From NCBI GenBank assembly GCA_041287865.1, contig JBGGMV010000028.1, positions 100,964 through 164,963 of the forward strand: a stretch of DNA of 64,000 bases. Direction: 5' to 3'. Shown here piece after piece: positions 1,614 to 50,786 of the stretch; within the stretch, counting starts at the first letter, position 1, and each line of letters starts with the position of its first letter. The DNA is from Alphaproteobacteria bacterium (GTDB lineage Bacteria; Pseudomonadota; Alphaproteobacteria; Micavibrionales; UBA2020). The translations under genes and the position numbers were made by a program. The notes under the pieces are model-generated. The model saw only the letters and a program-made list of their open reading frames with translations, did not search any database and was not told the origin of the DNA.

Positions 1614-2450
1614 TTACGCGCGCCCGAAAACGCCGCCGATTTGCTTCGCAAGGCCGCGTTTGGGCTTTTTCACCCGCAGGGGTTTTTTCTTTACCTGCAC
1701 GTCGTTTTTCAGTCTCGTGGCCAGTTCGTCCGGGCCCAGCACGGCGGCGCGGGCGAAGTCTTCGGGGAATTTGTTTTTCAGGCCTTCCAGCCATTGCACG
1801 CGTTCATGCGCGGGGGCCTCCGCGATTGTATCCAGCTGGTAGTAAAACGCGCGTTCCAGCGCGGGCAGGCCTTCGACTTCAAAATGGGTGAGCTGACGCG
1901 GTTCATTCTCGCGCGCCCGCGCTTCGCGCCATTCGCGGGTGACCTTGCGGCCGGTGCCGATATTCATCAGCGCGCGGGGGCCTGCGGCGCAGGCGCCCGC
2001 AAGGCAGAGCGCGGCAGGCGCCGCCACCATCGTCACGGCGGAGACAAGCGGGAAGAACGCAAGGCCCGCAAGGGCGCAGGGCGCAAGCGCGGCAAGACCC
2101 GTCAGCGCGGGCGCGAAGATCAGCTTGGCCGCAAGCCCGCCCGCAATCAGGGAGCCCGTATGCAGGCCCATCAGGCAGAAGATATTCTTGAAGGGCAGCA
2201 TGCCCGCCCGCGCCGTGTCGCGCAGGAAAATGCCGGCCGGCATGGTTTTATAGGCGCGCGGGCCGCTGCAATAATTTATGCCCAGCGTTTCGATTTTATC
2301 CAGCCTTTTGGCAACCGCGCGCGGCACGGACTCGAGCAGGAAATCGGACGTGGTTTTAATCACCCGCGCGTAAAGGCGGAAATTGGGCAGGATGAAATGG
2401 TCGTAGGTGCTGCGGCCCGCCTTGGCCACGAAACCGGCGAGAGTTTTCAT
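1614..2450 (-). CDS. Hypothetical hydrophobic-hairpin protein, family A, candidate T4BSS effector
   Basis: Gly/Ala-rich TM segments; ERVQWLEGLKNKFPEDF module; tail LKNDVQVKKKPLRVKK; ATGA overlap with upstream paralogue. Confidence 0.8.
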   Translation of the reverse strand: MKTLAGFVAKAGRSTYDHFILPNFRLYARVIKTTSDFLLESVPRAVAKRLDKIETLGINYCSGPRAYKTMPAGIFLRDTARAGMLPFKNIFCLMGLHTGSLIAGGLAAKLIFAPALTGLAALAPCALAGLAFFPLVSAVTMVAAPAALCLAGACAAGPRALMNIGTGRKVTREWREARARENEPRQLTHFEVEGLPALERAFYYQLDTIAEAPAHERVQWLEGLKNKFPEDFARAAVLGPDELATRLKNDVQVKKKPLRVKKPKRGLAKQIGGVFGRA

Positions 2451-3217
2451 GGCGCGCCCCCCTGCCCCGTATCGGGCGTTGGCGCGGGCGCGCGGAGTTT
2501 CAGCGGGCCTTTCACCGTGACGGGCGCGCGCAGCACGGGCGCATGCGCGTCGAGATGCGCGGCCTCGTTGAATTCGGCGGGGAAGCGCTTGCGCAAAGTG
2601 CGGAAGAAAGCTTCGCGCGCGCGACCGTTCTGCAGCCCGATCAGGCTGAGGTGATTGTCAAGTGAGTCGGTGAGCGGCGGATGTTTCGGCGGTTCCGGCA
2701 CGGTGACTTTCGGCGGGTTCATGCGATACTGGCGGCAGAGCTCCGCTTCGCGGAAACCCTTTGCCAGCATGGTGGGCCAGCAGATCGTCGCCGCCGCGGC
2801 CATCGGCAGCAGGATACTGCAGCCGACGCCGATTGCGGTTGCGACCAGCGGCGCTGTGACAACACCGGCGGCAAGGGCAGCCGCAGCCGCCAGAATTCCC
2901 TGACCACCCAGCAAGGCCGCTGTGCCCGTGGCCGCGTAAAAGCCCGAAGTAACCCCAGCCGCAAGTCCGCCCAGCATCAGCACAGGGCTGTAGGAAGTGG
3001 TCATTGCCTCGCGCACCGCGCCTGTCTTGCGCGCAGGCATCGCCAGCGTGGCAGCAACCACGTCGCGCCAGCCGTAGGTGTCGCGCGGGCTGTCGTCATG
3101 CTGCGCGCAGGCGTCGAGTTTTTTCGACAGCCAGCCGCCGATATCGAGGGCGCTCATCATCAGCATCGTGAAGTAAGCGTTGCCGAGATCGCTCCAACCC
3201 TTTTCCCTTACCGCCAT
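2447..3217 (-). CDS. Hypothetical hydrophobic-hairpin protein, family A, candidate effector
   Basis: GGGAGG RBS before ATG 3217; REAFFRTLRKRFPAEF module; tail VLRAPVTVKGPLKLR. Confidence 0.8.
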   Translation of the reverse strand: MAVREKGWSDLGNAYFTMLMMSALDIGGWLSKKLDACAQHDDSPRDTYGWRDVVAATLAMPARKTGAVREAMTTSYSPVLMLGGLAAGVTSGFYAATGTAALLGGQGILAAAAALAAGVVTAPLVATAIGVGCSILLPMAAAATICWPTMLAKGFREAELCRQYRMNPPKVTVPEPPKHPPLTDSLDNHLSLIGLQNGRAREAFFRTLRKRFPAEFNEAAHLDAHAPVLRAPVTVKGPLKLRAPAPTPDTGQGGAP

Positions 3218-3340
3218 GCGAGGCCTCCCGCGCCGCAACTGCGCCGCGTTTCCGCCTGATATGGATCGTGCCGCAAAACTGTCATCGGGCCCCTGAAGAT
3301 CTCCGGCCCTCCATGGGAAGGCCTTGAAAAAACTGGAACA

Positions 3341-3369
3341 ATAATACCCGATACCCCCTGTTGCGTCAA
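3341..3369 (-). promoter_or_regulatory. Sigma70-like promoter for the 3217 gene
   Basis: TTGACG-N17-TATTAT on minus strand. Confidence 0.5.
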
Positions 3370-3415
3370 TGATTATGGTAAATAAATGAACGGCGCAACA
3401 GACCGGCGGCCGTCC

Positions 3416-48401: not shown

Positions 48402-48431
48402 ACAGGCCAGAGTGCGGACGCGCGACTATTC

Positions 48432-49694
48432 TCAAAACCCGAAATTCTTGCGGGGTGCGTCGCGCATCGGCGGCTTGCTGGTGTCGTCGCCGCCCTTGAT
48501 AAAGGCGTGAATGCCCGAGGCCCAGCCCAGCACCATTTCCACGGCGTCGCGCATATGGATGCCGAATTTCTTCAGCTTGGGCGCTTCTTCCTTGGGCAGG
48601 TGGTTTTTGTAGAATTTTTCCACGCGCTTGCCGGTCTTTTCGGTCAGGCCGGAATGGCGGGCGTCGTCGAACGACATATTGGGCAGGTGATCGTTCAGGT
48701 AGGATTTGCCGCGATGCTGGATGCGGTCCTTGATCCACTGGCTGTCGACATCCTTGCTGAAGTTTTTCTGCAGCCAGGGGAAGGAGCCTTTCAGCTTGGG
48801 CGCGTACATTTCGGCCCATTCGATATGCGCGTCTTCATAGAACGTGCGCAGGTAGAAGTTGTCGTAGAAAGCTTCGTAGGCAGCCGCCACCGATGCGCCG
48901 TTCTGCAGGTTCTTTTCGTTGATCAGGACCTTTTCGGCGGCGAGGATGATATCGGGGAAGCGTTCGCGCATCTGCATCAGCGGGCCCTGCAGCGTCATCT
49001 GGTCTTTCGGCCCGTCGGGATCGCCATAGGCGAGTTCGAGAGCAATCTGCGACTGCTGCGCGTAAGCGTCAGCCTCGATCGCAAAGGACATCTTGATCCC
49101 CACTTCCGGCTTGTGGCGGGTGGAGGGGAAAAGATCGTGGCGCGAGTTCTGCACCGCGTGAACCGATTCATGGCCCAGCAGCAGCGCGACGTATTCGGGA
49201 TTGTCATGGCCGCGCAAAATGATCAGTTTGTCTGACGGATCGCAGAGGCCGCCGGCGCCGCGGTCGCCCGTGCGTTTGTCGTCAAAGACGATGCGGTAGC
49301 CTTCTTTCGTCAGCTGTTCCAGCACGTCGCGGCCCGTGGGGCTCTGCGACAGGATAAAGACAGCGTCTTCCAGCACGCGCGCGTTGCGTTCTTCTTCTTT
49401 TTCAAGCAGGGCCTTGCGGCGGGCTTTTTGCGCGTCGTTGGCGAAGGGATCGGGTTTTTCGTTCTGGATGGTGCCGATGAAATCGACCTGCACCGGCGGG
49501 CGCGCATAAGCGCGGCGCGTCTGGCCGTCTTCGGTGATATTGACCGCAAGCGTCCAGTCGCCGCGGTCTGGCGGCCCAGACGGAGACGATGGCACAGGCG
49601 CGCCAGCCTGCGGCGGTAACGTCACTGACATCCCCGGCCCCTTTGAGGAGAGGTCCAGGAACTTTGGCGTAATCTTTTCAGGCAAACGCGACAT
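48432..49694 (-). CDS. HExxH zinc metallopeptidase-like protein without signal peptide
   Basis: SPTGRDVL..LLGHESVHAVQ..IEADAYAQ; same family as 5201-6214; GGGGG RBS before ATG 49694. Confidence 0.75.
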   Translation of the reverse strand: MSRLPEKITPKFLDLSSKGPGMSVTLPPQAGAPVPSSPSGPPDRGDWTLAVNITEDGQTRRAYARPPVQVDFIGTIQNEKPDPFANDAQKARRKALLEKEEERNARVLEDAVFILSQSPTGRDVLEQLTKEGYRIVFDDKRTGDRGAGGLCDPSDKLIILRGHDNPEYVALLLGHESVHAVQNSRHDLFPSTRHKPEVGIKMSFAIEADAYAQQSQIALELAYGDPDGPKDQMTLQGPLMQMRERFPDIILAAEKVLINEKNLQNGASVAAAYEAFYDNFYLRTFYEDAHIEWAEMYAPKLKGSFPWLQKNFSKDVDSQWIKDRIQHRGKSYLNDHLPNMSFDDARHSGLTEKTGKRVEKFYKNHLPKEEAPKLKKFGIHMRDAVEMVLGWASGIHAFIKGGDDTSKPPMRDAPRKNFGF

Positions 49695-49898
49695 GATAGA
49701 CCCCCGGTACACACCCGACATGTCACGCCGTTCGATACGTCTATCTGAACACAGGATAAGAAAATCTGTCCAGAATTATCCACAGTAAGACATAATAAAC
49801 GGCGCAAGTTGTCGTCTCTTGAGTCGTGATAATAAGGATGAATGCTTAATATTCCGTTGTTTTCCCATAATGCATGGAGTTGATCCGGCGGGGTGTTT

Positions 49899-50786
49899 AT
49901 GTTAAAAATTCGGCCCATGGAAGATAACGATGAATTCAAAAAGGCCGCACTGTCGGGCCTCGATTTGCGCAGCTCGAATCCCGCGATCGCGCAGCTGCGC
50001 AACAAGTTCCTGACCGCCGCGCGCACGGGCGATACGCGCGTGCTGAAGCAGGCGGTGGAAGCCTTCCCGAAAGACATCGACATCCGCATCTTCAACACCA
50101 CGGCGCTGCATGCCGCCGTCATCCGCAAGCAGCCGCAGGCGGTGACGGTGCTGCTGCAGGCGGGTGCTTCGCCGAACGTGAAGGATATGGACAGCGTGTC
50201 GTCGCCCATGCATGAAGCGGCGCAGAACAACGACACCTTTACGCTCATCCAGCTGATCCACAAAGGCGGGCAGGTGAACCTTTCCGGCCTCTACGGTACT
50301 CCCGCTAAATTCGCCGTCGACGCGAACGCGACCAAGACGCTGGCCGTGCTGCTGACCCATGGCGCGGCGGCGATGAAATTCGACGATGACGGGCATACGC
50401 TGCTGCACCGTGCGGCATTGATGGGACGCGCGGAAAGCCTTGATTTACTGCTGTCAAAAGACCTCGACATCAATGCGCGTAACCGCGACGGCCAGACGCC
50501 CCTGATGGTGGCGGTGCAGGAGGGCAAGGTTACTTGCGCCAAAACTTTGCTGGAGCACGGGGCGGATTACCGCCTGGTTGACGACATGCGCGATACCGCG
50601 CTCGACATGATCGAGGGCAATGGCGGCAACAGCGAAGCCACGGTCGAGGCCCTGCAAAAACTTTTCCGCGCGCGCATCAGCCGCGATGCCGCAGAGGCCG
50701 CCGCGCCCTTCAACGACGGCGCTGAAAGCAAGGTTAGCGTGCGCCGCCCCTTAGTCCTTAAAAACAAACCCGGCCCCCTGCGCTAG
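49899..50786 (+). CDS. Ankyrin repeat protein, candidate effector
   Basis: TTALHAAV, SPMHEAA, GHTLLHRAA, GQTPLMVAV; tail FNDGAESKVSVRRPLVLK. Confidence 0.92.
   Translation: MLKIRPMEDNDEFKKAALSGLDLRSSNPAIAQLRNKFLTAARTGDTRVLKQAVEAFPKDIDIRIFNTTALHAAVIRKQPQAVTVLLQAGASPNVKDMDSVSSPMHEAAQNNDTFTLIQLIHKGGQVNLSGLYGTPAKFAVDANATKTLAVLLTHGAAAMKFDDDGHTLLHRAALMGRAESLDLLLSKDLDINARNRDGQTPLMVAVQEGKVTCAKTLLEHGADYRLVDDMRDTALDMIEGNGGNSEATVEALQKLFRARISRDAAEAAAPFNDGAESKVSVRRPLVLKNKPGPLR

Follow-up and report, generated by a model that had tools for sequence, protein, structure and literature searches.

Why do about 200 otherwise unrelated small proteins of an uncultured Micavibrio-like bacterium end in one and the same 16-residue basic peptide, and which system might read it? 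The question was raised by a 64-kb stretch (C28:100964-164963, referred to below as the window) of the draft genome of this organism (G000; 3.6 Mb, 59% GC, 136 contigs), in which the original prediction had described a shared tail on 12 proteins near genes of a type IVB (Dot/Icm) secretion system (T4BSS) and had proposed that this tag is a new type IVB translocation signal. A literature search found nothing describing such an effector tag. The fuzzy signals of Legionella and Coxiella make type IVB effectors difficult to predict, and a crisp motif would yield a near-complete effector list from sequence in a barely studied Micavibrio-like family. In addition, the tag peptides are short enough for direct binding assays and structural studies on the coupling complex, and the species dialects found on orthologous proteins would represent a natural experiment in which signal, receptor and hundreds of substrates change together.

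A C-terminal tag on about 200 proteins

The 12 tails of the original prediction were all present on translating genes of the window, two of them (11728-12603 and 24746-26107) in degenerate form (Table 1). For the genome-wide census, the gene set comprised 3,438 rough calls (92% coding) made with a crude codon-score caller of our own instead of an established gene finder, so that all totals of tagged proteins are approximate. A loose regular expression gave 82 matches in six-frame open reading frames of at least 120 aa, 58 of which lay within 10 aa of the stop. A 16-column position-specific scoring matrix (PSSM), trained iteratively on the rough gene calls and used at a threshold of at least 12 bits, gave 218 matches, of which 13 were internal; 201 ended within 15 aa of the stop and 205, in 204 distinct proteins, within 25 aa. 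The same PSSM found two matches in a reversed and three in a shuffled proteome, none of them C-terminal. Besides these proteins, ∼55 additional ones had shorter h-[KR]-h-[KR] ends (82 observed vs 25 expected), and the whole repertoire therefore amounts to ∼200–250 proteins, or 6–7% of genes. Thus, a C-terminal tag system is real and very large, and, as described below, it has lineage-specific spellings.

The consensus of the PSSM set was x-G-[TL]-x-x-x-[IV]-x-[VAP]-x-[KR]-P-[LI]-x-[LF]-[KR], after which came 0–20 polar, Lys/Pro-rich residues (mode 3–5), often K-P or P-K-x-P. The layout of sortase or exosortase substrates (motif, transmembrane (TM) helix and basic cluster) was not seen at these ends. 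The conserved P, K and L positions drew freely on synonymous codons (CCG/CCC/CCT/CCA, AAG/AAA and CTG/CTC/TTG, respectively; for the P column, CCG 87, CCC 45, CCT 16 and CCA 5), which indicates that selection acts on the peptide and not on a DNA element; the idea that the motif arose as a DNA repeat was therefore rejected.

Compared without their tails, the 204 carriers fell into 77 BLAST clusters (E 1e-5), that is, one cluster of 95 ankyrin-repeat proteins, 16 small families and 60 singletons, and the predicted occurrence of the tag on many unrelated proteins holds far beyond the window. Families of TM-hairpin proteins were among the carriers. No Pfam domain could be identified in 41 of the 45 non-ankyrin carriers scanned, the other four being Band_7, TelA, Cut8 and a holin-like family. 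The carriers were small (median length 210 aa), and a signal-peptide-like N-terminus was found in 6% of them as compared with 21% of other proteins; the net charge of the last 20 aa was +3.3 vs +1.05. The earlier statements that housekeeping proteins lack the tag and that its carriers are without Sec signals agree with these data. Tagged genes were also clustered in the genome: they formed 55 adjacent pairs, against an expectation of 11.6, and on contig C28, which contains two T4BSS loci, tags were found on 27 of 225 genes (vs 5.9% genome-wide). A TTGACATAA box (extended -35) was present within 150 bp upstream of 35 of the 204 tagged genes (17%) and of 85 of the 3,234 others (2.6%), which suggests a promoter class common to the tagged set. 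Taken as a whole, the make-up of the carriers appears typical of an effector set.

Lineage-specific spellings of the tag

The occurrence of the tag in relatives was surveyed in 151 sampled genomes of the order, with a profile threshold of E <= 0.01. The profile of the spelling found in the window (dialect A, KPLKLK; profile A1, 22 columns, 60 tails) gave 144 sites in G000, and its matches were confined to one family. Within the same genus, at least 58 matches were found in G000, 42 in G093, 30 in G119 and 26 in G089, and smaller numbers occurred in three other genera (7 in G027, 6 in G059, 4 in G075 and 2 in G077). The motif was C-terminal in 47 of 48 proteins of these relatives. Ten further genomes of the same genus had no A1 match. 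In one such congener, G032, nine proteins encoded in the 400 kb around the T4BSS had another end in common, ...G-x4-[VIL]-x-A-P-[KQA]-T-A-[RQH]-F-[RK]-[RK], and a profile of these nine tails (A2, dialect B) gave 9–36 sites per genome in seven members of the genus and none in the four dialect-A genomes. The two spellings, KPLKLK and APKTARFKK, were mutually exclusive over the 151 genomes. A third spelling, P-[MV]-[KR]-T-V-[RT]-F-[KR]-K (KTVRFK), was identified in G071, and a relaxed dialect-B profile yielded only noise in G071, G113, G015, G062 and G052.

Syntenic orthologs bore the spelling of their own genome. An ankyrin gene beside a conserved neighbour could be followed in five genomes, and its product ended in EGTTEKVAVRKPLSFKKPD in G000, NGTAEKTAVMKPLSFKKPSA in G093, NGISKPVKALRPARFKPK... 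in G113, NGSTRAMRPVRTVTFKKPGA in G071 and EGSHRKLAAPATAHFRKKPPQP in G032. In a tree built from the T4BSS proteins themselves (DotL+DotM), dialects A and B formed sister clades, and G071 and G113 branched outside. Dialect A is probably ancestral because it recurs in other genera, and it has probably been replaced at least three times. The exclusive dialects and the switch on orthologs fit a single common bacterial reader.

The type IVB machine and the probable reader of the tag

A Dot/Icm machine had been placed at 54.5–64 kb of the window, and it is genuine, with a probable IcmB, IcmJ/DotN, an IcmG-like protein, IcmE/DotG and IcmK/DotH (Table 1). For IcmB/DotO, size and synteny fit, HMM matches were weak (TraC, E 0.002), and neither a PDB match nor, under a strict expression, a canonical Walker A motif was obtained. 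A conserved 127-aa protein is encoded on the minus strand between IcmJ/DotN and the TraQ-like protein, and two IcmL/DotI genes follow IcmK/DotH just past the window. DotD (PF16816, E 8e-37; NF033882), a lytic transglycosylase and DotC (PDB 6x62, E 1e-35) are encoded on C28, 53 kb upstream; all components of the outer-membrane core (DotC, DotD, DotH/IcmK and DotG/IcmE) were thus matched. DotH was found in 145 of the 151 genomes (114 of 115 good-quality ones), and a cluster of the order icmB-icmJ-...-icmE-icmK-icmL (DotH, E 1e-100) is located at G134:C1:2422381-2433000. Although the 2011 genome paper of Micavibrio aeruginosavorus ARL-13, the first on Micavibrio, reported no evidence of a type IV system (PMC3189940), the order carries a conserved T4BSS, and T4BSS genes are known in marine Micavibrionales (PMC9418006). 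Beside dotC/dotD, a tandem of five paralogs (∼446–518 aa; C28:37225-44512) has counterparts of 39–48% identity in G032. The T4BSS locus is also flanked by two paralogs of a DUF6782 putative metallopeptidase (window 48432-49721 and L001:7696-8814), both of which have Lys/Pro-rich ends without the main motif.

The coupling complex was matched in full (DotL, DotM and DotN), and the T4BSS as a whole looks complete. DotL and DotM are encoded in an operon dotM-p177-dotL-p113 on contig C66; DotM matched NF033890 (E 1.8e-48) and 6sz9_B (E 9e-19), and DotL, the sole PF12696 coupling-protein match in the genome, aligned with Legionella DotL (6sz9_A, E 8e-142) over residues 3–606 only. Its tail (residues 607–858) is acidic (net -13), rich in Ala, Pro and Gly, and does not align to Legionella DotL, and contains four P-[LV]-S-W-x-[DE]-V-I-G repeats at residues 703–843 (C66:121320-121742; L023:17320-17742), which were kept at 2–4 copies in all 23 family genomes examined. 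This repeat tail is a candidate docking region. In Legionella DotM, Glu is bound by R196/R197/R217, which align with D/R/K here; this is not decisive. The IcmS profile (PF12608) gave no match in the genome but was equally silent in control genomes, so its silence is not evidence of absence. Every family genome examined has dotL between the genes of two small proteins, p177 (L023:14625-15158, C66) and p113 (L023:17787-18128, C66). In p177, an N-terminal domain is combined with one TM helix and a conserved terminal VKPGxPVPADQLFG; p113 has a pair of TM helices and terminates in GGKxGG..YKSRH. Both evolve fast, with 33–45% identity vs ∼70% for DotL. They were considered as IcmS/IcmW-like adaptors and rejected, as each is a small membrane protein, neither matched Pfam or NCBIfam, and neither showed a pattern specific to a dialect.

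Which export system could serve the tagged proteins? The genome contains two secretins and a genuine type_I_hlyD gene (373 bits), and the type VI marker TssC was not found in it. About 13 RTX-repeat proteins (contigs C115, C89, C8, C97, C54, C69, C66 and C55; for example, C115:52210-61314) end alike, ...VDADG..F..VA.L.GVTGL......GNLIV-COOH, with ∼40 conserved C-terminal residues. This end is the presumptive type I signal and an unusually well conserved one, and all ∼16 RTX-repeat proteins lack the basic tag. A separate class of substrates can thus be assigned to the type I system, and, given that TssC was not found, the T4BSS is left as the only recognised one-step system for ∼200 Sec-independent ankyrin and TM-hairpin proteins. 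By this exclusion, together with the make-up of the tagged set and its genomic clustering, a type IVB translocation signal is the best reading of the tag, and we consider it probable, with considerable room for doubt. The tail would then be a short linear recognition peptide of beta-strand-like alternation (h-x-h-x-basic-P-h-x-h-basic), presented on a flexible Lys/Pro-rich C-terminus, that labels ∼200–250 cytoplasmically made proteins for one-step export. Its reader would most likely be the Dot/Icm coupling complex (DotL, DotM and DotN), with the acidic, repeat-bearing DotL tail as a candidate receptor, and the dialects may reflect co-evolution of signal and receptor.

It should be noted that several points weigh against type IVB export. 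The link between tag and T4BSS is drawn by exclusion and analogy. Co-occurrence, which had been suggested as a check, did not discriminate: the T4BSS proved to be order-wide, each dialect is restricted to few species, and such a comparison is therefore uninformative. A genome that lacks the T4BSS, as a natural-loss test would need, was not found; G099, with no DotH or DotL match, was considered as one and rejected, since an IcmB fragment at a contig end indicates an assembly gap. In G134, no common tail motif was found in the 400 kb around the T4BSS. Fixed differences between dialects A and B were denser in DotL, with 50 (17% of variable columns) vs 8 (6%) in DotM, and clustered at DotL residues 668–708 and 235–291, but this co-variation is not evidence, because the dialect groups are clades and descent confounds the comparison. 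(A DotL I-[ND]-P segment common to dialect-A lineages of three genera is a lead only.) Furthermore, the T4BSS signals of Legionella and Coxiella are acidic and fuzzy, whereas the tag is basic and discrete, and a type I system, as judged by hlyD, is present in 26 of the 27 family genomes.

This last observation, and the fact that type I signals are likewise C-terminal and uncleaved, would favor an HlyB/HlyD/TolC type I secretion signal, as in the case of the Orientia ankyrin proteins (PMC4315096). We ruled this out as the principal reading on account of the end that RTX proteins bear, which is acidic-hydrophobic, different from the tag and never tagged, and we regard it as very improbable. One dialect-B genome, though only 96% complete, has 31 tags and no hlyD match, and for a type I system a set of ∼200 small substrates with TM-hairpin proteins among them would be without precedent. 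Lys and Pro abound in the tag, whereas K, H, P, M, W and C are scarce in type I signals; in LDAVTSIF/KHPMWC composition, no difference was seen between tagged ends and other proteins.

Two further explanations appear unlikely, though less so. The tag could act after delivery, being read by a host or prey factor (a membrane, a nuclear import factor or a scaffold), with export determined otherwise. Basic-hydrophobic tails are able to bind membranes or import factors, host switches could drive dialect switches, and the ankyrin proteins hint at a eukaryotic partner. On the other hand, a single destination is difficult to imagine for TM-hairpin, SPFH, ankyrin and orphan proteins that are all tagged alike, the position of the tag is fixed at 0–20 aa from the stop, and an all-or-none swap between sister clades is easier with one bacterial reader. 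We give about the same small chance, if anything slightly less, to an intracellular role (a dock for a chaperone or storage factor, or a protease degron) or an unrecognised export route. Here, the two conserved small membrane proteins beside dotL and the silence of the IcmS profile, which the controls share, could be taken in favor. However, known C-terminal degrons are short, non-polar and placed at the extreme end, p177 and p113 show no dialect-specific pattern, and a control system devoted to 6% of the proteome, all of it effector-like, would again imply that delivery is involved.

If type IVB export is the correct reading, how does the tag compare with known signals? The system resembles the Dot/Icm systems of Legionella and Coxiella (PMC3096851, PMC2701608) in its homologous machine (DotL, DotM, DotN, DotG, DotH, DotC, DotD and probably IcmB), in an uncleaved signal within the last ∼20–35 residues and in a repertoire of hundreds in which ankyrin proteins, TM effectors and orphans abound. 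Legionella signals comprise a RalF-type hydrophobic residue near the end and an E-block read by DotM (PMC3096851, PMC2701608). Signals of this type are an acidic E-block or a bias toward polar or small residues, with no fixed sequence. Whereas the signals of both genera are a compositional bias, the tag is a discrete conserved motif of 16 residues; in contrast with the Legionella E-block, it is not Glu-rich, has a net charge of ∼+3 (as the original prediction of a basic signal distinct from that acidic block supposed) and is followed by a Lys/Pro tail. Also unlike Legionella, the DotL tail is unrelated past residue ∼606 and has four W-repeats, and the spelling of the motif varies between sister species. 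With the signals of VirB/D4 (type IVA) systems, it shares a C-terminal position, a net positive charge, an alphaproteobacterial origin and a presumed reader of the VirD4 family, but its consensus is K-P-h-x-h-K instead of an Arg pattern (R-x7-R-x-R-x-R in Agrobacterium VirE2/VirF), the BID domain of Bartonella Beps is absent here, and the sole PF12696 match is the type IVB DotL. In Legionella, LvgA reads an FxxxLxxxK helix on a subset of effectors. That route is similar in its short linear motif near the C-terminus and in the docking to the coupling complex that is proposed for the tag; the LvgA motif is, however, helical, confined to few effectors and read by an IcmSW-LvgA module, of which the IcmS profile gave the silent result noted above. 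Type I signals (RTX proteins and the Orientia ankyrin proteins, PMC4315096) are also C-terminal and uncleaved with ankyrin substrates known, but the RTX proteins of G000 bear the other conserved end. On the basis of sequence, the machine belongs to the Dot/Icm family, and the signal lies outside both the Legionella type and the Arg-pattern type of VirB/D4, although like them it would serve as an uncleaved label at the C-terminus.

A more far-reaching proposal, which we put forward tentatively and hold to be possible rather than probable, is that tag and reader form a discrete, evolvable 'address code'. Direct reading of the 16-residue peptide, perhaps via the W-repeat tail of DotL, would replace an adaptor route of the IcmSW type, and from an ancestral KPLKLK the spelling would have changed on at least three occasions, to APKTARFK, KTVRFK and others, while the whole repertoire of dozens to ∼200 effectors followed. 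If this were true, the effectors of sister species would be mutually non-exportable, and the family would be a natural system for the co-evolution of a signal and hundreds of its substrates.

Features of the window and minor protein ends

Table 1 Tagged proteins and T4BSS components encoded in the window (window positions)
Feature	Position	Strand	Tail or match
Hydrophobic-hairpin protein family 1, 278 aa, without Pfam family	1614..2450	-	RLKNDVQVKKKPLRVKK + 16 aa
Hairpin protein, family 1 paralog	2447..3238	-	VLRAPVTVKGPLKLR + 14 aa; profile match C28:103455-103514
Hairpin protein, family 1 paralog	4192..5004	-	VLRDKVQVMKPVKIK + 16 aa; 27.6 bits
Hairpin protein family 2	9915..10832	-	VLQNEITVDGPLKLK + 6 aa; 26.7 bits
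Hairpin protein family 2	10881..11735	-	VLQNEITTGGPIKLK + 8 aa; 28.1 bits
Hairpin protein family 2	11728..12603	-	degenerate, VLQAPVTAAKIKLK + 6 aa
Ankyrin protein, 190 aa	19723..20295	+	GLDKPIVARKRLRLK + 3 aa; 24.4 bits
SPFH/Band-7 protein, 198 aa	22676..23272	-	GLRSDVSVRKPLRLK + 4 aa; 26.9 bits, E 3e-5; top profile match of the genome
Ankyrin protein	23272..23979	-	PLNKISVGKPLKFK + 5 aa
Ankyrin protein	23985..24749	-	GLQQSIGILRPLKLK + 2 aa; 26.1 bits
Ankyrin protein, 453 aa	24746..26107	-	degenerate, SLRAIKPLKVIKVK + 9 aa
Ankyrin protein	49893..50786	+	GAESKVSVRRPLVLK + 7 aa; 26.0 bits
717-aa protein, family unassigned	51185..53338	+	short variant LKFKLK-COOH; G032 ortholog ends RFRLK-COOH
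Ankyrin protein	53346..54308	+	short variant QKFRLK-COOH
IcmB/DotO-type ATPase, 1026 aa	54539..57619	-	homologs of 65–88% identity named IcmB by NCBI and JGI; adjoins icmJ
IcmJ/DotN, coupling-complex subunit	57878..58627	-	NF038221, E 3e-26
TraQ(IncI1)-like T4BSS membrane protein	59091..60035	-	NF033883, E 4.5e-7
IcmG/DotF-like protein	60446..62002	-	NF038218, E 3.6e-5, below cut-off
IcmE/DotG	62105..63481	-	NF033900, E 1.7e-38; TrbI PF03743
IcmK/DotH, C-terminal part; gene crosses window end	63478..64000	-	PF12293, E 4e-69

Among the hairpin proteins of family 1, one member (3416-4195) has lost the tag and ends in ...AANDLKNLPN, whereas its three tandem paralogs are still tagged. A second, shorter type of tail, [KR]-F-[KR]-L-K at or near the C-terminus, was found on two proteins of the window (51185-53338 and 53346-54308) and also at C28:212727-218376. 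Unlike the main tag, it has the same spelling in dialect-A and dialect-B genomes (LKFKLK and RFRLK in orthologs). Finally, a minor third ending, consisting of a Lys/Pro-rich stretch and then G-x(0-2)-[FL]-[SDN]-[LF]-COOH, was observed in 19 proteins vs 4 in a random-cut control (for example, C28:205028-205651, C28:51356-53511 and C66:109726-110577). It is sometimes located downstream of the main tag, and it is kept in the orthologs of G032, G071 and G089.

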